DNA of 64,000 bases, from the NCBI RefSeq assembly GCF_011045215.1, contig NZ_CP049201.1. The stretch is one strand, 5' to 3'. Numbering within the stretch: position 1 is the stretch's first letter; each line of letters begins with the position of its first letter. The notes beneath the pieces are model-generated. The model was not told the origin of the DNA, ran no database searches, and worked only from the letters and a program-made list of their open reading frames with translations. Positions 1,275-29,434 of this stretch are shown piece by piece. Source of the stretch: Escherichia coli. Lineage in GTDB: Bacteria > Pseudomonadota > Gammaproteobacteria > Enterobacterales > Enterobacteriaceae. Made by a program: the position numbers and the translations under genes.

Positions 1275-2165
1275 ATGTCTCTACACTCTCCAGGTAAAGC
1301 GTTTCGCGCTGCACTGTCTAAAGAAAATCCATTGCAGATTGTTGGCACCATTAACGCCAACCATGCGCTGTTGGCGCAGCGTGCCGGATATCAGGCAATT
1401 TATCTCTCCGGCGGTGGCGTGGCGGCAGGGTCGCTGGGGCTGCCCGATCTCGGTATTTCTACTCTTGATGACGTGTTGACAGATATTCGCCGTATCACCG
1501 ACGTTTGTTCGCTGCCGCTGCTGGTGGATGCGGATATCGGTTTTGGTTCTTCTGCTTTTAACGTGGCGCGCACCGTGAAATCGATGATTAAAGCCGGTGC
1601 GGCAGGATTGCATATTGAAGATCAGGTTGGTGCGAAACGCTGCGGTCATCGTCCGAATAAAGCGATCGTCTCGAAAGAGGAGATGGTGGATCGGATCCGC
1701 GCGGCGGTGGATGCGAAAACCGATCCTGATTTTGTGATCATGGCGCGCACCGATGCGCTGGCGGTTGAAGGACTGGATGCGGCGATCGAGCGTGCGCAGG
1801 CCTATGTTGAAGCGGGTGCCGAGATGTTGTTCCCGGAGGCGATTACCGAACTCGCCATGTACCGCCAGTTTGCCGATGCGGTGCAGGTGCCAATCCTCGC
1901 CAACATTACCGAATTTGGTGCCACGCCGCTGTTTACCACCGACGAATTACGCAGCGCCCATGTCGCAATGGCGCTGTACCCGCTTTCAGCGTTCCGTGCC
2001 ATGAACCGCGCCGCTGAACATGTCTACAACGTCCTGCGTCAGGAAGGCACGCAGAAAAGTGTCATCGACACCATGCAAACCCGCAACGAGCTGTACGAAA
2101 GCATCAACTACTACCAGTACGAAGAGAAGCTCGACGACCTGTTTGCCCGTAACCAGGCGAAATAA
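1275..2165 (+). CDS. prpB: 2-methylisocitrate lyase
   Basis: 296-aa [17 protein letters not shown]..., recognised as PrpB (isocitrate lyase/PEP mutase family). Confidence 0.95.
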
Positions 2166-2196
2166 AAAACGCCCGTTGGTTGTATTTGACAACCGA

Positions 2197-2285
2197 TGCC
2201 TGATGCGCCGCTGACGCGACTTATCAGGCCTACGGGGTGTACTGAACTGTAGGTCGGATAAGACGCATGGCGTCGCATCCGACAA
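2197..2285. repeat. REP/BIME element in the prpB-prpC intergenic region
   Basis: Two inverted REP units, gcctgatgcgccgctgacgcgacttatcaggcctac and gtaggtcggataagacgcatggcgtcgcatccgac. Confidence 0.8.
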
Positions 2286-2325
2286 CAATCTCGACCCTAC
2301 AAATGATAACAATGACGAGGACAAT

Positions 2326-3495
2326 ATGAGCGACACAACAATCCTGCAAAACAGTACCCATGTCATTAAACCGAAAAAATCTGTGGCACTTTCTGGCGTT
2401 CCGGCGGGCAATACGGCGCTCTGCACCGTGGGTAAAAGCGGCAATGACCTGCATTACCGCGGCTACGATATTCTTGATCTGGCGGAACATTGCGAATTTG
2501 AAGAAGTGGCGCATCTGCTGATCCACGGCAAACTGCCGACCCGTGACGAACTCGCCGCTTACAAAACGAAACTGAAAGCCCTGCGCGGTTTACCGGCTAA
2601 CGTGCGTACCGTGCTGGAAGCCTTACCGGCGGCGTCACACCCGATGGATGTTATGCGCACCGGCGTTTCCGCGCTCGGCTGCACGCTGCCAGAAAAAGAG
2701 GGGCATACCGTCTCTGGCGCGCGGGATATTGCCGACAAACTGCTGGCATCACTTAGCTCGATTCTCCTTTATTGGTATCACTACAGCCATAACGGCGAAC
2801 GCATCCAGCCGGAAACCGATGACGACTCCATCGGCGGTCACTTCCTGCATCTGCTGCACGGCGAAAAGCCGTCGCAAAGCTGGGAAAAGGCGATGCATAT
2901 TTCGCTGGTGCTGTACGCCGAACACGAGTTTAACGCCTCCACCTTTACCAGTCGGGTGATTGCGGGCACTGGCTCTGATATGTATTCCGCGATTATTGGC
3001 GCGATTGGCGCACTGCGCGGGCCGAAACACGGCGGGGCGAATGAAGTGTCGCTGGAGATCCAGCAACGCTACGAAACGCCAGACGAAGCCGAAGCCGATA
3101 TCCGCAAGCGGGTGGAAAACAAAGAAGTGGTCATTGGTTTTGGTCATCCGGTTTATACCATCGCCGACCCGCGCCACCAGGTGATTAAACGTGTGGCGAA
3201 GCAGCTCTCGCAGGAAGGCGGCTCGCTGAAGATGTACAACATCGCCGATCGCCTGGAAACGGTGATGTGGGAAACGAAAAAGATGTTCCCCAATCTCGAC
3301 TGGTTCTCCGCTGTTTCCTACAACATGATGGGCGTTCCCACCGAGATGTTCACACCACTGTTTGTTATCGCCCGCGTCACCGGCTGGGCGGCGCACATTA
3401 TCGAACAACGTCAGGACAACAAAATTATCCGTCCTTCCGCCAATTATGTTGGACCGGAAGACCGCCAGTTTGTCGCGCTGGATAAGCGCCAGTAA
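2326..3495 (+). CDS. prpC: 2-methylcitrate synthase
   Basis: 389-aa [21 protein letters not shown]..., citrate synthase family; GAGGA Shine-Dalgarno upstream. Confidence 0.95.
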
Positions 3496-3528: not shown

Positions 3529-4980
3529 ATGTCAGCTCAAATCAACAACATCCGCCCGGAATTTGATCGTGAAATCGTTGATATCGTCGATTACGTCATG
3601 AACTACGAAATCAGCTCTAAAGTGGCCTACGACACCGCACATTTCTGCCTGCTCGACACTCTCGGCTGCGGTCTGGAAGCTCTCGAATACCCGGCCTGTA
3701 AAAAACTGCTGGGGCCAGTTGTCCCCGGCACCGTCGTACCTAACGGCGTGCGCGTCCCCGGAACTCAGTTCCAGCTCGACCCCGTCCAGGCGGCATTTAA
3801 CATCGGCGCGATGATCCGCTGGCTCGATTTCAACGATACCTGGCTTGCGGCAGAGTGGGGCCATCCTTCCGACAACCTCGGCGGCATTCTGGCAACGGCG
3901 GACTGGCTTTCACGCAACGCGGTCGCCAGCGGCAAAGCGCCGTTGACCATGAAACAGGTACTGACCGGAATGATTAAAGCTCATGAAATTCAGGGCTGCA
4001 TCGCGCTGGAAAACTCCTTTAACCGCGTCGGCCTCGACCACGTTCTGTTAGTGAAAGTGGCTTCCACCGCCGTGGTCGCCGAAATGCTCGGTCTGACCCG
4101 CGAGGAAATTCTCAATGCCGTTTCGCTGGCGTGGGTGGACGGTCAGTCGCTGCGCACCTATCGCCATGCGCCGAACACCGGCACGCGTAAATCCTGGGCA
4201 GCGGGCGATGCCACTTCCCGCGCGGTACGTCTGGCACTGATGGCGAAAACGGGCGAAATGGGTTATCCGTCAGCCCTGACTGCGCCTGTGTGGGGCTTCT
4301 ACGACGTTTCCTTCAAAGGTGAATCGTTCCGCTTCCAGCGCCCGTACGGTTCTTACGTGATGGAAAATGTGCTGTTCAAAATCTCCTTCCCGGCGGAGTT
4401 CCACTCCCAGACGGCAGTTGAAGCAGCGATGACGCTCTATGAACAGATGCAGGCAGCAGGCAAAACGGCGGCGGATATCGAAAAAGTGACCATTCGCACC
4501 CACGAAGCCTGTATTCGCATCATCGACAAAAAGGGGCCGCTTAATAACCCGGCAGACCGCGACCACTGCATTCAGTACATGGTGGCGATCCCGCTGCTGT
4601 TCGGGCGCTTAACGGCGGCAGATTACGAGGACAACGTTGCGCAAGATAAACGCATCGACGCCCTGCGCGAGAAGATCAATTGCTTTGAAGATCCGGCGTT
4701 TACCGCTGACTACCACGACCCGGAAAAACGCGCCATCGCCAATGCCATTACTCTTGAGTTCACCGACGGCACGCGCTTTGAAGAAGTGGTGGTGGAGTAC
4801 CCCATTGGTCATGCTCGCCGCCGTCAGGATGGCATTCCGAAGCTGGTGGATAAATTCAAAATCAATCTCGCGCGCCAGTTCCCGACTCGCCAGCAGCAGC
4901 GCATTCTGGAGGTTTCTCTCGACAGAGCTCGCCTGGAACAGATGCCGGTCAATGAGTATCTCGACCTGTACGTCATTTAA
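3529..4980 (+). CDS. prpD: 2-methylcitrate dehydratase
   Basis: 483-aa [23 protein letters not shown]..., MmgE/PrpD family. Confidence 0.95.
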
Positions 4981-5019
4981 GCAAACAGCGGTAAGGCGTA
5001 AGTTCAACAGGAGAGCATT

Positions 5020-6906
5020 ATGTCTTTTAGCGAATTTTATCAGCGTTCGATTAACGAACCGGAGCAGTTCTGGGCCGAGCAGGCCCGGCGTATTGACTGG
5101 CAGACGCCCTTTACGCAAACGCTCGATCACAGCAATCCTCCGTTTGCTCGTTGGTTTTGTGAAGGCCGAACCAACTTGTGTCACAACGCTATCGATCGCT
5201 GGCTGGAGAAACAGCCAGAGGCGCTGGCGCTGATTGCCGTCTCTTCGGAAACAGAAGAAGAGCGCACCTTTACCTTTCGTCAGCTGCATGACGAAGTGAA
5301 CGCGGTGGCGTCAATGCTGCGCTCACTGGGCGTGCAGCGTGGCGAACGGGTGCTGGTGTATATGCCGATGATTGCCGAAGCGCATATAACCCTGCTGGCT
5401 TGCGCGCGCATTGGCGCTATTCACTCGGTGGTGTTTGGTGGATTTGCCTCTCATAGCGTGGCGGCGCGAATTGATGATGCTAAACCGGTGCTGATTGTCT
5501 CGGCTGATGCCGGAGCGCGCGGTGGCAAAATCATTCCCTATAAAAAATTGCTCGACGATGCGATAAGTCAGGCGCAGCACCAGCCGCGCCATGTTTTGCT
5601 GGTGGATCGCGGGCTGGCGAAAATGGCGCGCGTCAGCGGGCGGGATGTCGATTTCGCGTCGTTGCGCCATCAACACATCGGCGCGCGGGTACCGGTGGCG
5701 TGGCTGGAATCCAACGAAACCTCCTGCATTCTCTACACCTCCGGCACGACCGGCAAACCTAAAGGCGTGCAGCGCGACGTCGGCGGATATGCGGTGGCGC
5801 TGGCGACCTCGATGGACACCATTTTTGGCGGCAAAGCGGGCGGTGTGTTCTTTTGTGCTTCGGATATCGGCTGGGTGGTGGGGCATTCGTATATCGTCTA
5901 CGCGCCGCTGCTGGCGGGGATGGCGACTATCGTTTACGAAGGATTACCGACCTGGCCGGACTGCGGCGTGTGGTGGAAAATCGTCGAGAAATATCAGGTT
6001 AGCCGGATGTTCTCAGCGCCGACCGCCATTCGCGTGCTGAAAAAATTCCCTACCGCTGAAATTCGCAAACACGATCTCTCGTCGCTGGAAGTACTCTATC
6101 TGGCGGGGGAGCCGCTGGACGAGCCAACCGCCAGTTGGGTAAGCAATACGCTGGATGTGCCGGTTATCGACAACTACTGGCAGACCGAATCCGGCTGGCC
6201 GATTATGGCGATTGCTCGCGGTCTGGACGACAGGCCGACGCGTCTGGGAAGCCCCGGCGTGCCGATGTATGGCTATAACGTGCAGTTGCTTAATGAAGTC
6301 ACCGGCGAACCGTGTGGCGTCAACGAGAAAGGGATGCTGGTGGTGGAAGGGCCGCTGCCGCCGGGCTGTATTCAGACCATCTGGGGCGACGACGACCGCT
6401 TTGTGAAGACTTACTGGTCGCTGTTTTCCCGCCCGGTGTACGCCACCTTTGACTGGGGCATCCGTGACGCTGACGGTTATCACTTTATTCTCGGGCGCAC
6501 TGACGATGTAATTAACGTCGCCGGGCATCGGCTGGGCACGCGCGAGATTGAAGAGAGTATCTCCAGTCATCCGGGCGTTGCCGAAGTGGCGGTGGTTGGG
6601 GTGAAAGATGCGCTGAAAGGGCAGGTGGCGGTGGCGTTTGTCATTCCGAAAGAGAGCGACAGTCTGGAAGACCGCGAGGTGGCGCATTCACAAGAGAACG
6701 CGATTATGGCGCTGGTGGACAGCCAGATTGGCAACTTTGGCCGCCCGGCGCACGTCTGGTTTGTCTCGCAATTGCCAAAAACGCGATCCGGAAAAATGCT
6801 GCGCCGCACGATCCAGGCGATTTGCGAAGGACGCGATCCTGGGGATCTGACGACCATTGATGATCCTGCGTCGTTGGATCAGATCCGCCAGGCGATGGAA
6901 GAGTAA
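5020..6906 (+). CDS. prpE: Propionyl-CoA synthetase
   Basis: 628-aa ORF with an acyl-CoA synthetase AMP-binding motif (YTSGTTGKPKG). Confidence 0.95.
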   Translation: MSFSEFYQRSINEPEQFWAEQARRIDWQTPFTQTLDHSNPPFARWFCEGRTNLCHNAIDRWLEKQPEALALIAVSSETEEERTFTFRQLHDEVNAVASMLRSLGVQRGERVLVYMPMIAEAHITLLACARIGAIHSVVFGGFASHSVAARIDDAKPVLIVSADAGARGGKIIPYKKLLDDAISQAQHQPRHVLLVDRGLAKMARVSGRDVDFASLRHQHIGARVPVAWLESNETSCILYTSGTTGKPKGVQRDVGGYAVALATSMDTIFGGKAGGVFFCASDIGWVVGHSYIVYAPLLAGMATIVYEGLPTWPDCGVWWKIVEKYQVSRMFSAPTAIRVLKKFPTAEIRKHDLSSLEVLYLAGEPLDEPTASWVSNTLDVPVIDNYWQTESGWPIMAIARGLDDRPTRLGSPGVPMYGYNVQLLNEVTGEPCGVNEKGMLVVEGPLPPGCIQTIWGDDDRFVKTYWSLFSRPVYATFDWGIRDADGYHFILGRTDDVINVAGHRLGTREIEESISSHPGVAEVAVVGVKDALKGQVAVAFVIPKESDSLEDREVAHSQENAIMALVDSQIGNFGRPAHVWFVSQLPKTRSGKMLRRTIQAICEGRDPGDLTTIDDPASLDQIRQAMEE

Positions 6907-6954
6907 GGTATTGTCGGATGCGTCGCGTGGCGCATCCGACAGTTGTGCGCAGAT

Positions 6955-7840
6955 GCCTGATGCGACGCTGGCGCGTCTTATCATGCCTACAGGCCTGAAC
7001 CGTAGGTCGGATAAGGCGCTCGCACCGCATCCGACACCGTGCTCAGTGCCTGATGCGACGCAGGCGCGTCTTATCATACCTACAGGCCTGAACCGTAGGT
7101 CGGATAAGGCGCTCGCGGCGCATCCGACACCATGCGCAGATGCCTGATGCGACGCTGATGCGTCTTATCATGCCTACAGGCCTGAACCGTAGGTCGGATA
7201 AGGCGCTCGCGCCGCATCCGACACCATGCGCAGATGCCTGATGCGACGCTGATGCGTCTTATCATGCCTACAGGCCTGAACCGTAGGTCGGATAAGGCGC
7301 TCGCGCCGCATCCGACACCATGCGCCGATGCCTGATGCGACGCAGGCGCGTCTTATCATGCCTACAGGCCTGAACCGTAGGTCGGATAAGGCGCTCGCAC
7401 CGCATCCGACACCGTGCTCAGTGCCTGATGCGACGCTGATGCGTCTTATCATGCCTACAGGCCTGAACCGTAGGTCGGATAAGGCGCTCGCGCCGCATCC
7501 GACACCATGCGCAGATGCCTGATGCGACGCTGATGCGTCTTATCATGCCTACAGGCCTGAACCGTAGGTCGGATAAGGCGCTCGCGCCGCATCCGACACC
7601 ATGCGCCGATGCCTGATGCGACGCTGGCGCGTCTTATCATGCCTACAGGCCTGAACCGTAGGTCGGATAAGGCGCTCGCGCCGCATCCGACACCGTGCGC
7701 AGATGCCTGATACGACGCAGGCGCGTCTTATCATGCCTACAGGCCTGAACCGTAGGTCGGATAAGGCGCTCGCGCCGCATCCGACACCATGCGCCGATGC
7801 CTGATGCGACGCTTACCGCGTCTTATCATGCCTACCCACT
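6955..7840. repeat. Tandem array of REP/BIME units, about 9.5 copies of a ~94-bp unit
   Basis: Unit gcctgatgcgacgc...gtcttatcatgcctacaggcctgaaccgtaggtcggataaggcgctcgcgccgcatccgacacc... recurs with starts near 6955, 7049, 7143, 7237, 7331, 7425, 7519, 7613, 7707 and 7800, with a few point differences between copies. Confidence 0.9.
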
Positions 7841-7905
7841 GTTTTTACACCGATAATTTTCCCCCCACCTTTTTGCACTCATTCATATAAAAAATATATT
7901 TCCCC

Positions 7906-7921
7906 ACGAAAACGATTGCTT
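7906..7921 (+). promoter_or_regulatory. Candidate PurR operator (PUR box) upstream of codBA
   Basis: ACGAAAACGATTGCTT resembles the PUR-box consensus ANGCAAACGTTTNCNT and sits about 70 bp upstream of the codB start. Confidence 0.35.
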
Positions 7922-7987
7922 TTTATCTTCAGATGAATAGAATGCGGCGGATTTTTTGGGTTTCAAACAGCAAAAAGGGGGAATTTC

Positions 7988-9247
7988 GTGTCGCAAGATA
8001 ACAACTTTAGCCAGGGGCCAGTCCCGCAGTCGGCGCGGAAAGGGGTATTGGCATTGACGTTCGTCATGCTGGGATTAACCTTCTTTTCCGCCAGTATGTG
8101 GACCGGCGGCACTCTCGGAACCGGTCTTAGCTATCATGATTTCTTCCTCGCAGTTCTCATCGGCAACCTTCTCCTCGGTATTTACACTTCATTTCTCGGT
8201 TACATTGGCGCAAAAACCGGCCTGACCACTCATCTTCTTGCTCGCTTCTCGTTTGGTGTTAAAGGCTCATGGCTGCCTTCACTGCTGCTGGGCGGCACCC
8301 AGGTTGGCTGGTTTGGCGTCGGTGTGGCGATGTTTGCTATTCCGGTGGGCAAGGCAACCGGGCTGGATATTAATTTGCTGATTGCCGTTTCCGGTTTACT
8401 GATGACCGTCACCGTCTTCTTTGGCATTTCGGCGCTGACAGTTCTTTCGGTGATTGCGGTTCCGGCGATCGCCTGTCTTGGCGGTTATTCCGTGTGGCTG
8501 GCCGTTAACGGCATGGGCGGCCTGGACGCCTTAAAAGCGGTCGTTCCCGCACAACCATTAGATTTCAATGTCGCGCTGGCGCTGGTTGTGGGGTCATTTA
8601 TCAGTGCGGGTACGCTCACCGCCGACTTTGTCCGGTTTGGTCGCAATGCCAAACTGGCGGTGCTGGTGGCGATGGTGGCCTTTTTCCTCGGCAACTCGTT
8701 GATGTTTATTTTCGGTGCAGCGGGCGCTGCGGCACTGGGGATGGCGGATATCTCTGATGTGATGATTGCTCAGGGCCTGCTGTTGCCTGCGATTGTGGTG
8801 CTGGGGCTAAATATCTGGACCACCAACGATAACGCGCTCTATGCGTCGGGTTTAGGTTTCGCCAACATTACCGGGATGTCGAGCAAAACCCTTTCGGTAA
8901 TCAACGGTATTATCGGTACGGTCTGCGCATTATGGCTGTATAACAATTTTGTCGGCTGGTTGACCTTCCTTTCGGCAGCTATTCCTCCGGTGGGTGGCGT
9001 GATCATTGCCGACTATCTGATGAACCGTCGCCGCTATGAGCACTTTGCGACCACGCGTATGATGAGTATCAATTGGGTGGCGATTCTGGCGGTCGCCTTG
9101 GGGATTGCTGCAGGCCACTGGTTACCGGGAATTGTTCCGGTCAACGCGGTATTAGGTGGCGCGCTGAGCTATCTGATCCTTAACCCGATTTTGAATCGTA
9201 AAACGACAGCAGCAATGACGCATGTGGAGGCTAACAGTGTCGAATAA
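7988..9247 (+). CDS. codB: Cytosine permease (NCS1 family)
   Basis: 419-aa ORF starting at a [22 protein letters not shown]..., multi-pass membrane protein. Confidence 0.93.
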
Positions 9248-10520
9248 CGCTTTACAAACAATTATTAACGCCCGGTTACCAGGCGAAGAGGGGCTGTGGC
9301 AGATTCATCTGCAGGACGGAAAAATCAGCGCCATTGATGCGCAATCCGGCGTGATGCCCATAACTGAAAACAGCCTGGATGCCGAACAAGGTTTAGTTAT
9401 ACCGCCGTTTGTGGAGCCACATATTCACCTGGACACCACGCAAACCGCCGGACAACCGAACTGGAATCAGTCCGGCACGCTGTTTGAAGGCATTGAACGC
9501 TGGGCCGAGCGCAAAGCGTTATTAACCCATGACGATGTGAAACAACGCGCATGGCAAACGCTGAAATGGCAGATTGCCAACGGCATTCAGCATGTGCGTA
9601 CCCATGTCGATGTTTCGGATGCAACGCTAACTGCGCTGAAAGCAATGCTGGAAGTGAAGCAGGAAGTCGCGCCGTGGATTGATCTGCAAATCGTCGCCTT
9701 CCCTCAGGAAGGGATTTTGTCGTATCCCAACGGTGAAGCGTTGCTGGAAGAGGCGTTACGCTTAGGGGCAGATGTAGTGGGGGCGATTCCGCATTTTGAA
9801 TTTACCCGTGAATACGGCGTGGAGTCGCTGCATAAAACCTTCGCCCTGGCGCAAAAATACGACCGTCTCATCGACGTTCACTGTGATGAGATCGATGACG
9901 AGCAGTCGCGCTTTGTCGAAACCGTTGCTGCCCTGGCGCACCATGAAGGCATGGGCGCGCGAGTCACCGCCAGCCACACCACGGCAATGCACTCCTATAA
10001 CGGGGCGTATACCTCACGCCTGTTCCGCTTGCTGAAAATGTCCGGTATTAACTTTGTCGCCAATCCGCTGGTCAATATTCATCTGCAAGGACGTTTCGAT
10101 ACGTATCCAAAACGTCGCGGCATCACGCGCGTTAAAGAGATGCTGGAGTCCGGCATTAACGTCTGCTTTGGTCACGATGATGTCTTCGATCCGTGGTATC
10201 CGCTGGGAACGGCGAATATGCTGCAAGTGCTGCATATGGGGCTGCATGTGTGTCAGTTGATGGGTTACGGGCAGATTAACGATGGTCTGAATTTGATCAC
10301 CTACCACAGCGCCAGAACGTTGAATTTGCAGGATTACGGCATTGCCACCGGAAACAGCGCCAACCTGATTATCCTGCCGGCTGAAAATGGATTTGATGCG
10401 CTGCGCCGTCAGGTTCCGGTACGTTATTCGGTACGTGGCGGCAAGGTGATTGCCAGCACACAACCGGCACAAACCACCGTATATCTGGAGCAGCCGGAAG
10501 CCATCGATTACAAACGGTGA
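9237..10520 (+). CDS. codA: Cytosine deaminase
   Basis: Start placed at the GTG at 9237 ([19 protein letters not shown]...), overlapping the codB 3' end; 427 aa. The ORF track starts 15 nt upstream. Confidence 0.9.
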
Positions 10521-14111: not shown

Positions 14112-14723
14112 TTAAACTGACGATTCAACTTTGTAATCTCTGAAATAATATTGCTTATCCCGGTCGTTTATTTCGCGAATAACCCGACAAGGAACGCCAG
14201 CCGCCACGACGTTTGGTGGAATGTCTTTTGTGACGATACTACCCGCGCCAATAACAGAATTATCCCCGATGGTGACGCCTGGATTAATAACCACATGACT
14301 TCCGATCCAGACGTTATTGCCAATCGTTATCGGAAAAGAGTACATCTCACCGTTTTTTCTCAATTCATGGTGTACAGGGTGTCCCGTAACGGAAAGAGTA
14401 ACGTTGGGTGCAATCAGTACGTTATCACCGATTGTTACCGTGTAGTCATCGACAATGGTTAAATTGAAATTTGCATAAAAATTGCGGCCTATATGGATGT
14501 TGGAACCGTAAGAGAAATAGACGGGGGGTTCTACCCAGGCGTTTTCCCCTACCGTGGCAAACATTTCTTTAATCAGGCTTTCTCTTTTTTCAACTTCTGA
14601 TGGATGCGAGTGATTAAACTCATACATTAACGTTTTCCCACGAAGTCTTTTTTCCGGTAAGCCTTCGCACATATCGGTAAATAGCTTGCCTGCTTTTATT
14701 CTTTCTGTCATCGACATGTTCAT
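14112..14723 (-). CDS. lacA: Galactoside O-acetyltransferase
   Basis: Protein MNMSMTERIKAGKLFTDMCEGLPEKRLRG..., hexapeptide-repeat acetyltransferase, 203 aa. The start is trimmed from the ORF-track start, which runs into a REP element. Confidence 0.92.
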   Translation of the reverse strand: MNMSMTERIKAGKLFTDMCEGLPEKRLRGKTLMYEFNHSHPSEVEKRESLIKEMFATVGENAWVEPPVYFSYGSNIHIGRNFYANFNLTIVDDYTVTIGDNVLIAPNVTLSVTGHPVHHELRKNGEMYSFPITIGNNVWIGSHVVINPGVTIGDNSVIGAGSIVTKDIPPNVVAAGVPCRVIREINDRDKQYYFRDYKVESSV

Positions 14724-14737
14724 TGCGATCATTCCGT

Positions 14738-14775
14738 TATGATATGTTGGTCGGATAAGGCGCTCGCGCCGCATC
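14738..14775. repeat. REP element in the lacY-lacA intergenic region
   Basis: ggtcggataaggcgctcgcgccgcatccgaca. Confidence 0.7.
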
Positions 14776-26730: not shown

Positions 26731-26734
<4 letters not shown>

Positions 26735-27744
26735 ACGGTAAAAAACTTTATATCTCGGACGTCACGTTGCGTGACGGTATGCACGCCATTCGTCATCAGT
26801 ATTCGCTGGAAAACGTTCGCCAGATTGCCAAAGCACTGGACGATGCCCGCGTGGATTCGATTGAAGTGGCCCACGGCGACGGTTTGCAGGGTTCCAGCTT
26901 TAACTATGGTTTCGGCGCACATAGCGACCTTGAATGGATTGAAGCAGCGGCGGATGTGGTGAAGCACGCCAAAATCGCGACGTTGTTGCTGCCAGGAATC
27001 GGCACTATTCACGATCTGAAAAATGCCTGGCAGGCTGGCGCGCGGGTGGTTCGTGTGGCAACGCACTGTACCGAAGCTGATGTTTCCGCCCAGCATATTC
27101 AGTATGCCCGCGAGCTCGGAATGGACACCGTTGGTTTTCTGATGATGAGCCATATGACCACGCCGGAGAATCTCGCCAAGCAGGCAAAGCTGATGGAAGG
27201 CTACGGTGCGACCTGCATTTATGTGGTGGATTCTGGCGGTGCGATGAACATGAGCGATATCCGTGACCGTTTCCGCGCCCTGAAAGCAGTGCTGAAACCA
27301 GAAACGCAAACCGGCATGCACGCTCACCATAACCTGAGTCTTGGCGTGGCGAACTCTATCGCGGCGGTGGAAGAGGGCTGCGACCGAATCGACGCCAGCC
27401 TCGCGGGAATGGGAGCGGGCGCAGGTAACGCGCCGCTGGAAGTATTTATTGCCGCCGCGGATAAACTGGGTTGGCAGCATGGGGCCGATCTCTATGCGTT
27501 AATGGATGCCGCTGACGACCTGGTGCGTCCGTTGCAGGATCGACCGGTACGAGTCGATCGCGAAACGCTGGCGCTGGGATACGCTGGTGTTTACTCCAGC
27601 TTCCTGCGTCACTGTGAAACGGCGGCGGCGCGTTATGGCTTAAGCGCGGTGGATATTCTCGTTGAGCTGGGCAAACGCCGGATGGTTGGCGGCCAGGAGG
27701 ATATGATCGTCGACGTGGCGCTGGATCTGCGCAACAACAAATAA
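26731..27744 (+). CDS. mhpE: 4-hydroxy-2-oxovalerate aldolase
   Basis: 337-aa [28 protein letters not shown]...; overlaps the mhpF stop. Confidence 0.93.
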
Positions 27745-27789
27745 TATTGACTGCCGAGAACGTGCATTTTGTATGCCCATCCCAGCACG

Positions 27790-28135
<346 letters not shown>

Positions 28136-28222
28136 CCCGTAGGCAGTCATTAAATAGTTCTGATGACGCGGCTGGCAATGTATCCGTCGCGATTCACCTG
28201 CACACGCAACGAGGTTCATCTT

Positions 28223-29434
28223 ATGTCGACTCGTACCCCTTCATCATCTTCATCCCGCCTGATGCTGACCATCGGGCTTTGTTTTTTGGTCGCTCTGATG
28301 GAAGGGCTGGATCTTCAGGCGGCTGGCATTGCGGCGGGTGGCATCGCCCAGGTTTTCGCACTCGATAAAATGCAAATGGGCTGGATATTCAGCGCCGGAA
28401 TACTCGGTTTGCTACCCGGCGCGTTGGTTGGCGGAATGCTGGCGGACCGTTATGGTCGCAAGCGCATTTTGATTGGCTCAGTTGCGCTGTTTGGTTTGTT
28501 CTCGCTGGCAACGGCGATTGCCTGGGATTTCCCCTCACTGGTCTTTGCGCGGCTGATGACCGGTGTCGGGCTGGGGGCGGCGTTGCCGAATCTTATCGCC
28601 CTGACGTCTGAAGCCGCGGGTCCACGTTTTCGTGGGACGGCAGTGAGCCTGATGTATTGCGGTGTTCCCATTGGCGCGGCGCTGGCGGCGACACTGGGTT
28701 TCGCGGGGGCAAACTTAGCATGGCAAACGGTGTTTTGGGTAGGTGGTGTGGTGCCGTTGATTCTGGTGCCGCTATTAATGCGCTGGTTGCCGGAGTCGGC
28801 GGTTTTCGCTGGCGAAAAACAGGCTGCGCCACCACTGCGTGCGTTATTTGCGCCAGAAACGGCAACCGCGACGCTGCTGCTGTGGCTGTGTTATTTCTTC
28901 ACTCTGCTGGTGGTTTACATGTTGATCAACTGGCTACCGCTGCTTTTGGTGGAGCAAGGATTCCAGCCATCGCAGGCGGCAGGGGTGATGTTTGCACTGC
29001 AAATGGGGGCGGCAAGCGGGACGTTAATGTTGGGCGCATTGATGGATAAGCTGCGTCCAGTAACCATGTCGCTACTGATTTATAGCGGCATGTTAGCTTC
29101 GCTGCTGGCGCTGGGAACGGTGTCGTCATTTAACGGTATGTTGCTGGCGGGATTTGTCGCGGGGTTGTTTGCGACAGGTGGGCAAAGCGTTTTGTATGCC
29201 CTGGCACCGTTGTTTTACAGTTCGCAGATCCGCGCAACAGGTGTGGGAACAGCCGTGGCGGTAGGGCGTCTGGGGGCTATGAGCGGTCCGTTACTGGCCG
29301 GGAAAATGCTGGCATTAGGCACTGGCACGGTCGGCGTAATGGCCGCTTCTGCACCGGGTATTCTTGTTGCTGGGTTGGCGGTGTTTATTTTGATGAGTCA
29401 GAGATCAAGAATGCAGCCGTGTGCCGATGCCTGA
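28223..29434 (+). CDS. mhpT: 3-hydroxyphenylpropionate transporter (MFS)
   Basis: Protein MSTRTPSSSSSRLMLTIGLCFLVALMEGLDLQ..., 403 aa. The ORF-track start is 20 codons upstream, inside the REP array. Confidence 0.88.
   Translation: MSTRTPSSSSSRLMLTIGLCFLVALMEGLDLQAAGIAAGGIAQVFALDKMQMGWIFSAGILGLLPGALVGGMLADRYGRKRILIGSVALFGLFSLATAIAWDFPSLVFARLMTGVGLGAALPNLIALTSEAAGPRFRGTAVSLMYCGVPIGAALAATLGFAGANLAWQTVFWVGGVVPLILVPLLMRWLPESAVFAGEKQAAPPLRALFAPETATATLLLWLCYFFTLLVVYMLINWLPLLLVEQGFQPSQAAGVMFALQMGAASGTLMLGALMDKLRPVTMSLLIYSGMLASLLALGTVSSFNGMLLAGFVAGLFATGGQSVLYALAPLFYSSQIRATGVGTAVAVGRLGAMSGPLLAGKMLALGTGTVGVMAASAPGILVAGLAVFILMSQRSRMQPCADA

Follow-up and report, generated by a model that had tools for sequence, protein, structure and literature searches.

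What is the long tandem repeat that separates prpE from codB in this Escherichia coli genome, how did it come to be so long, and does its length matter to the genes on either side? The locus lies in a 64,000-nucleotide stretch of contig NZ_CP049201.1 (assembly GCF_011045215.1), here called the window, and the original prediction, made from the letters alone, described it as about 9.5 copies of a ~94-bp unit built from repetitive extragenic palindromes (REPs), in other words as a tandem array of bacterial interspersed mosaic elements (BIMEs). This description is confirmed by Tandem Repeats Finder, which returned one array at 6931-7835 with a period of 94, 9.6 copies, 94% matches and a score of 1575, by far the strongest tandem repeat in the window. 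Judged by its sequence, the element is almost certainly a BIME-2 array of alternating Y and Z2 REPs and the ortholog of REP26 of E. coli K-12. The best explanation for the locus as a whole, which we hold with good confidence, is that BIME-2/REP26 expanded in place and would serve as a stabilizer of RNA and an attenuator of transcription. What had been spotted, correctly, is thus an ordinary element: an unusually long allele of a known BIME-2.

Because the units are 93-95 bp long, no fixed 94-bp register fits the array throughout; units were delimited by anchoring on the motif CATCCGACA, which gave lengths of 95, 93, 94, 94, 94, 93, 94, 94 and 94 bp followed by a 63-bp terminal part, with each unit deviating from the consensus at 0-6 positions. 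The order within a unit is an inverted Y REP (iY), a 12-nt linker joining the two REPs head to head, a Z2 REP, and an 11-nt linker leading tail to tail into the next unit (AGGCCTGAACC). The Z2-type REP reads GCCTGATGCGACGCTGGCGCGTCTTATCATGCCTAC on the plus strand and the inverted Y-type REP reads GTAGGTCGGATAAGGCGCTCGCGCCGCATCCGACA; ten Z2 REPs on the plus strand alternate with nine Y REPs on the minus strand, making 19 full REPs in addition to a hairpin at the head of the array. This head hairpin is composed of an inverted Y REP's 3' arm and the complement of that arm, and begins 3 nt past the prpE stop codon. When it is counted the element starts at 6910, while the interval 6955-7840 extends from the first Z2 REP to just beyond the last. 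The head hairpin is kept in all of the alleles examined (PapM-32-1, O157:H7, O55:H7, LD91-1 and M15), and the sole REP of the one-unit allele of strain M15 is of the same type as terminal Z2 REP 10 of the window. The array is extragenic: prpE stops before it, at 6906, and codB starts after it, at 7988. NCBIfam equivalog models place both genes on the plus strand, so that the gap bearing the array is co-directional (tandem) and not convergent, as it had been called. REPs within ~15 nt of a stop codon reportedly lower translation through ribosome stalling, an effect for which the head hairpin, by its position, would qualify.

BIME-2 elements are defined by y and z2 REPs in multiple tandem copies with short linkers and no L linker (PMC3333891). 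At prpE-codB we find Y/Z2 units, alternation, short linkers, tandem copies and an extragenic site. Alignment to the consensus sequences quoted in PMC11208160 places the Z2 REPs one base from the z2 consensus and the Y REPs five bases from the y consensus, two of the five forming a compensatory C:G to T:A stem pair. REP26 is listed as 'Tandem' and assigned to prpE/codB in the supplement of a recent preprint (bioRxiv 10.64898/2026.03.23.713779); the RepRanger paper has nothing on this locus. The covariance model for naRNA4 (Rfam RF02564, gathering score 59.5 bits) matches the iY-linker-Z2 pairs ten times on the plus strand, eight times at 61.6-71 bits and twice below threshold, once at 59.2 bits and once, more weakly, at 6912-6987 (51.4 bits); scores on the minus strand of the array are lower. 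Each pair folds as two hairpins, which in the minimum free energy fold of 7567-7643 reach -18.8 and -14.8 kcal/mol when folded separately. The proposed binding of integration host factor (IHF) does not hold for this class, since the IHF site belongs to the L linker of BIME-1 (PMC3333891), and the IHF consensus WATCAANNNNTTR has no match within 6907-7840.

Comparison of copy number across E. coli, as the original prediction had advised, reveals wide variation at this site, from one to at least ten units. A query consisting of the flanks alone, with the array removed, was run against 5,426 complete E. coli genomes, of which 5,232 yielded the locus, insert length being the span of the joined match minus the length of the query. 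Among 59 evenly spaced genomes, 16 have inserts of ~82-96 bp (one Z2 REP) and 32, K-12 included, have 177-191 bp (two Z2 REPs), so that ~81% of the sample holds only one or two units. Inserts of ~277 bp (three units) occur in three genomes, 558 bp (six units) in one and 746 bp (eight units) in three, all O157:H7; four more have 1,374-1,469 bp with an annotated IS621 transposase. Long alleles were counted through the rule that pieces of a match are joined only within half the query length plus 500 bp, using flank queries of graded length. Records with at least 80% coverage numbered 4,858 at a threshold of 800 bp, 4,894 at 890, 4,903 at 980, 4,907 at 1,350 and 5,194 at 1,700. Subtraction yields ~36 records with nine units, ~9 with ten and ~4 with 11-14, along with ~287 whose inserts of 1,350-1,700 bp form the IS621 size class; all of these figures are indirect estimates that may err by a few. 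The ten-unit allele thus falls in roughly the top 0.3% for the locus. Its 19 REPs also exceed the maximum among the 355 annotated REPs of K-12, which hold 1-12 palindromic units, REP325 being among the longest with 12.

Within clones, copy number is fixed. All 52 O157:H7-type records listed share the same 1,746-bp span, corresponding to eight units, and the O55:H7 records share a span of 1,558-1,559 bp, corresponding to six. The expectation that such an array is prone to expansion and contraction is therefore borne out at the scale of the species and fails at that of the clone. When each distinct unit sequence is given a letter, the window reads A B C C D E C F G H, O55:H7 I C J E G M, O157:H7 I J K L J E G M, and PapM-32-1 A E N O P Q R S T U. 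Common to the alleles are the head hairpin, the unit that comes first, and the types of the penultimate and the terminal unit; their interiors differ, as do those of the two ten-unit arrays of the window and PapM-32-1. Unit types recur inside arrays, C three times in the window and J twice in O157:H7. The array has grown by reusing a few locus-specific unit types between fixed end units, and the recurring types and differing interiors are, as read from the sequences, the pattern of in-place duplication or loss of one or several units. Units would be gained and lost through unequal recombination or replication slippage between the 94-bp units, or through strand transfer by TnpA_REP, all of which have been modeled for such elements (PMC3333891), at a rate presumably low enough that copy number stays fixed within clones.

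The history of the locus can be followed a little further. Of 100,044 species-representative genomes only one has an exact match to the 31-nt tail-to-tail linker, that of Escherichia whittamii, where it lies at the orthologous prpE-codB site with three Z2 REPs. Since the linker is found only at prpE-codB, the unit type is specific to this locus; its presence in E. whittamii reflects either common descent or transfer. Over window positions 30-50 kb the closest complete genome is PapM-32-1, from a Gambian baboon (99.7%), but across 4907-9740 its identity is 97.65% for prpE and the upstream flank, 96.3% for the array and 99.3% on the codB side, and the region is therefore a recombination mosaic. 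Around prpE the window is nearest to O157/O55-like lineages (98.7-98.8%), and across the prpE-codB flanks its identity to any complete RefSeq E. coli genome reaches ~99% at most.

What such an array might do is best approached through REP325 of K-12, the BIME-2 that serves as the experimental model, a six-unit array between the co-directional genes yjdM and yjdN from which naRNA4 derives (PMC4550694); its sequence has a 100-bp unit and the same iY-linker-Z2 order relative to transcription as the window array. When REP325 is deleted, the upstream yjdM mRNA falls and the downstream yjdN mRNA rises ~10-fold, transcripts end in a ladder at the hairpins, and partial dependence on Rho is a property of the full array that fragments of 2-4 hairpins do not show (bioRxiv 10.64898/2026.03.23.713779). 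Stabilization of upstream mRNA, which had been proposed for arrays of this kind, has thus been demonstrated for an equivalent one. By this analogy the prpE-codB array most likely acts as an RNA-stabilizing, transcription-damping spacer between the two genes. It would be transcribed as the 3' untranslated region (UTR) of the prp operon, where its stacked, stable hairpins would block 3'-to-5' exonucleases and so stabilize prpE-proximal mRNA, and it would attenuate read-through into codBA in a partly Rho-dependent manner; the length of the array probably strengthens both effects. We lean, though only slightly, toward the view that the dual stabilizer/attenuator role applies here.

Several features of the locus bear on this role. 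No terminator-like site, with a GC-rich hairpin ahead of a U run, was found on the plus strand in 6700-8100; the head hairpin is followed by GUUGUGCGC. RNA from 6895-7220 folds at -168.9 kcal/mol (z = -7.9). In K-12 an in-vitro Rho-binding site, P_R10_256 (354711-354878, plus strand), lies in the sense orientation and overlaps REP26 by 59 bp, according to the supplement of the same preprint. The equivalent position in the window is a C-rich, G-poor tract directly after the array, with 28 C and 7 G at 7810-7887 against a C/G ratio of 1.12 in the array proper; this tract overlaps the codB promoter region. K-12 MG1655 has another in-vitro Rho-binding site (354,838-354,990, minus strand), antisense to the codB 5' UTR and 68 bp from REP26, which may indicate that antisense transcription running toward the array is terminated. 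As DNA, the array would probably also be a gyrase site independent of transcription. Other BIME-2 elements have been shown to be bound and cleaved by gyrase in vivo; gyrase cleavage sites are enriched in BIME-2, favor y REPs and do not depend on transcription (PMC6379681). This supports the original statement that such arrays can bind gyrase and makes binding plausible, by analogy, at prpE-codB.

Several points weigh against this functional reading. It is drawn entirely from the analogy with REP325, and the effects of REPs are context-dependent, with mRNA half-lives not uniformly changed. Less canonical REPs have been linked to weaker effects (both points from bioRxiv 10.64898/2026.03.23.713779), and the window REPs are less canonical than those of REP325, scoring 59-71 bits with the naRNA4 model against 84-88 for another array in the window, with a C.U mismatch in the Z2 stem. 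The supplements of the gyrase Topo-seq study (PMC6379681) do not mention prpE/codB. Finally, most E. coli manage with one or two units, so that the extra ones may add nothing that is selected.

This last point leads to the alternative that the expansion is neutral or selfish, driven by RAYT (TnpA_REP) or by slippage, with no effect on prp or cod beyond that of one or two units. We regard this as possible but doubtful. It is consistent with the predominance of one- and two-unit alleles in the sample and with the rarity and lineage confinement of the long ones, and TnpA_REP is able to cleave BIMEs and join them into tandem copies in vitro (PMC3333891). In REP325, however, both Rho dependence and the strength of attenuation appear only with the full-length array and not with 2-4 hairpins, so that length is expected to matter, and the eight-unit allele is invariant across all O157:H7 records listed.

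A role for length could be taken further by considering IS621, a member of the IS110 family whose bridge-RNA recombinase targets sites in REPs. Its natural target is ATCAGGCCTAC; ATCGGGCCTAC is also accepted, with otherwise low tolerance of mismatches (PMC11208160). In other strains IS621 enters the prpE-codB locus exactly at ATCAGGCCT/AC of the terminal Z2 (the slash marking the point of insertion), matching the published target (PMC11208160). In LD91-1 (NZ_CP042585.1) a 1,279-bp IS621 sits in the terminal Z2 with junctions ...ATCAGGCCT/TG...ACAGTATCT/AC...; the 7-nt sequence ACCCACT occurs twice after the insertion. By the threshold counts, an insert of the IS621 size class is present here in about 5.5% of complete E. 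coli genomes (~287 of 5,235 records), and all four such inserts in the sample are IS621. An exact target is found six times elsewhere in the window and not once in the array, whose Z2 tails read ATCATGCCTAC nine times and ATCATACCTAC once, every one with T instead of G at position 5 of the 11-nt target. An exact target is likewise missing from the further long alleles, those of PapM-32-1, O157:H7 and O55:H7. The prediction that the array is a preferred target of insertion sequences therefore stands for the locus in the species (four of 59 sampled genomes) and falls for the window allele. A stronger proposal is that array length is a selected, lineage-specific rheostat in which each added Y/Z2 pair increases the Rho-dependent insulation of codBA from propionate-induced transcription of prp and the life of prpE mRNA, and in which the locus-specific G-to-T change in every Z2 tail shields long arrays from IS621, which would occur only where a short allele retains the canonical target. 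We consider this proposal, taken whole, unlikely.

It is also conceivable that the array is real but that its unit count, which is ten as written in the assembly and needs long reads for verification in this genome, is wrong in the assembly. Inside the array the longest exact repeat, at 7141 and 7422, measures 203 bp, and three of the units do not differ from one another, so that the count is beyond the reach of reads shorter than ~200-300 nt. Just one further contig encodes an identical PrpE; it comes from a short-read assembly (SRR11014969) and ends inside the first Z2 REP, in keeping with the earlier warning about short-read assemblies of such repeats. Set against this, the independent complete genome of PapM-32-1 has ten units at the same site and aligns to window 6407-8340 as one ungapped piece of identical length, the ten-unit size class holds ~9 records and the nine-unit class ~36, and the window units are ordered, distinct variants of which the first and penultimate are shared with other alleles, which would be unusual for a collapsed or inflated repeat. 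Natural arrays of such a size certainly occur. An erroneous count is accordingly very unlikely in our estimation.

The REP325 model of Qian et al. (2015) suggests a quite different role, in which naRNA4-like transcripts and the protein HU bridge cruciform REPs and condense the chromosome, making the locus a nucleoid organizer. Eight units score above the RF02564 gathering score and fold into the required two hairpins, and HU binding and DNA condensation by naRNA4 have been described (PMC4550694). Yet deletion or over-expression of REP325 brought no change in the nucleoid, and neither a stable HU-RNA-cruciform complex nor REP-REP contacts in Hi-C data were seen (bioRxiv 10.64898/2026.03.23.713779), in work whose authors include the senior author of the 2015 naRNA4 study. 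The naRNA4 model also matches an unrelated BIME-2 array at 27.8-28.1 kb with higher scores, and a match therefore marks the Y/Z2 pair and not a specific function. We judge a nucleoid-organizing role to be highly improbable. The other array (27785-28129) has a period of 101 bp, 3.4 copies and canonical Y/Z2 REPs; it scores 84-88 bits with naRNA4 on the minus strand, is flanked by large open reading frames (ORFs) on the plus strand (26731-27744 and 28163-29434), and contains three exact IS621 targets, at 27844, 27945 and 28046.

That the region encodes repeat proteins can be dismissed: a ladder of ORFs of 61-96 aa is indeed present on both strands, but, as originally suspected, it is an artefact of the repeat, the ORFs recurring at the repeat period on both strands with no Pfam family at E <= 0.01, RefSeq giving no coding sequence in the gap of PapM-32-1, O157:H7, O55:H7 or K-12, and the REP consensus elements accounting fully for the sequence.

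Table 1. Coordinates of the array, its REPs and the associated features (window positions, except where another sequence is named).
Feature	Position	Strand	Basis or remark
BIME-2 tandem array, 9.6 x 94-bp unit	6931..7835	+	Tandem Repeats Finder, unit alignment
Head hairpin	6910..6943	+	Perfect 15-bp palindrome; RNA fold -25.3 kcal/mol
Z2 REP 1	6955..6990	+	
Y REP 1, inverted	7002..7036	-	
Z2 REP 2	7048..7083	+	Tail ATCATACCTAC
Y REP 2, inverted	7095..7129	-	
Z2 REP 3	7142..7177	+	
Y REP 3, inverted	7189..7223	-	
Z2 REP 4	7236..7271	+	
Y REP 4, inverted	7283..7317	-	
Z2 REP 5	7330..7365	+	
Y REP 5, inverted	7377..7411	-	
Z2 REP 6	7423..7458	+	
Y REP 6, inverted	7470..7504	-	
Z2 REP 7	7517..7552	+	
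Y REP 7, inverted	7564..7598	-	
Z2 REP 8	7611..7646	+	
Y REP 8, inverted	7658..7692	-	
Z2 REP 9	7705..7740	+	GATACG variant
Y REP 9, inverted	7752..7786	-	
Z2 REP 10, terminal	7799..7835	+	TTACC loop variant
Nine iY-linker-Z2 pairs matching RF02564 naRNA4	7005..7832	+	Covariance model
C-rich, G-poor tract right after the array	7810..7927	+	rut-like; equivalent of K-12 Rho-binding site
prpD	3529..4980	+	NCBIfam equivalog model
prpE, propionate--CoA ligase	5020..6906	+	NCBIfam TIGR02316, 1301.7 bits vs cutoff 827; TAA stop 6904-6906
codB, cytosine permease	7988..9247	+	NCBIfam NF008241, 695 bits; GTG start
codA	9222..10520	+	NCBIfam equivalog model
IS621 in the LD91-1 prpE-codB BIME	1676..2955 of the extracted LD91-1 locus		

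Upstream of codB, TTTGCA-17-TATATT is a sigma-70-like promoter match at 7872-7900, and ACGAAAACGATTGC (7906-7919) is a sequence that we take to resemble a PurR operator half-palindrome; both lie within the C-rich tract equivalent to the K-12 Rho-binding site. An internal promoter in the array was rejected, the single weak sigma-70-like match (7707-7734) being no more than shuffled sequences give. Isolated REPs occur in other gaps of the window, at 2223 (between the ORFs 1275-2165 and 2326-3495), 10610 (after codA), 14071 (just downstream of the ORF 14112-14774) and 30125; the first three carry exact IS621 targets and the last the ATCATGCCTAC variant. In E. whittamii Sa2BVA5 a different REP-like tandem repeat (1088-1282; 92 bp, 2.1 copies) lies between the first two large ORFs, which match window 1275-2165 and 2326-3495 in size and order, where the window has a single REP. 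The order and sizes of the large ORFs at 14.1-20.4 kb would fit lacA, lacY, lacZ and lacI.

The direct importance of the element is small. The locus already has its K-12 annotation, REP26, and the literature already covers BIME-2 arrays, the way their copy number varies from strain to strain, their gyrase binding and their effects in 3' UTRs. The element's value lies in the allelic series: natural alleles of 1, 2, 3, 6, 8, 9 and 10 units at one site are a ready-made set for the length dependence described for REP325. As short-read assemblies break at the first REP, copy number of the long alleles has to be taken from long reads.

Among known systems, BIME-1, the class of the IHF-binding RIB/RIP elements, resembles the window array in having inverted REP pairs in intergenic DNA, but it is a single-copy element with Y and Z1 REPs and a long L linker bearing an IHF site (PMC3333891), whereas the window array has Z2 REPs, short linkers, many copies and no IHF consensus. 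A CRISPR-like array was dismissed, as unique spacers are absent and one and the same short linker separates the REPs from unit to unit. Inverted REP doublets of ~100 bp, such as those of the array, are the unit on which RAYT is thought to act in the REPIN/RAYT system; the restriction of the present unit type to a single locus speaks for local duplication and not for dispersal. In K-12 rayT lies at ~247.6 kb (preprint supplement), roughly 100 kb from prpE-codB, and is not expected inside the window. REP26 of K-12 MG1655 (354,600-354,770) shares with the window array its locus, head hairpin, Y/Z2 unit type and the terminal junction CCTACCCACTG. The two differ in size, REP26 having two Z2 units in a 182-bp insert against ten units in 934 bp, and in that the terminal Z2 of REP26 retains the canonical IS621 target ATCAGGCCTAC, as no REP of the window allele does. 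REP325 (naRNA1-6) comprises six units of 100 bp (12 REPs) with canonical REPs and a 17-nt tail linker. In the window, by comparison, the ten 94-bp units (19 REPs and the head) have a tail linker of 11 nt, the Y REP is a variant whose stem bears a compensatory change, and the Z2 REP is one whose stem has a mismatch. The architecture is the same in both: a tandem run of iY-linker-Z2 units that match RF02564, free of an intrinsic terminator, set between co-directional genes in the same orientation to transcription.

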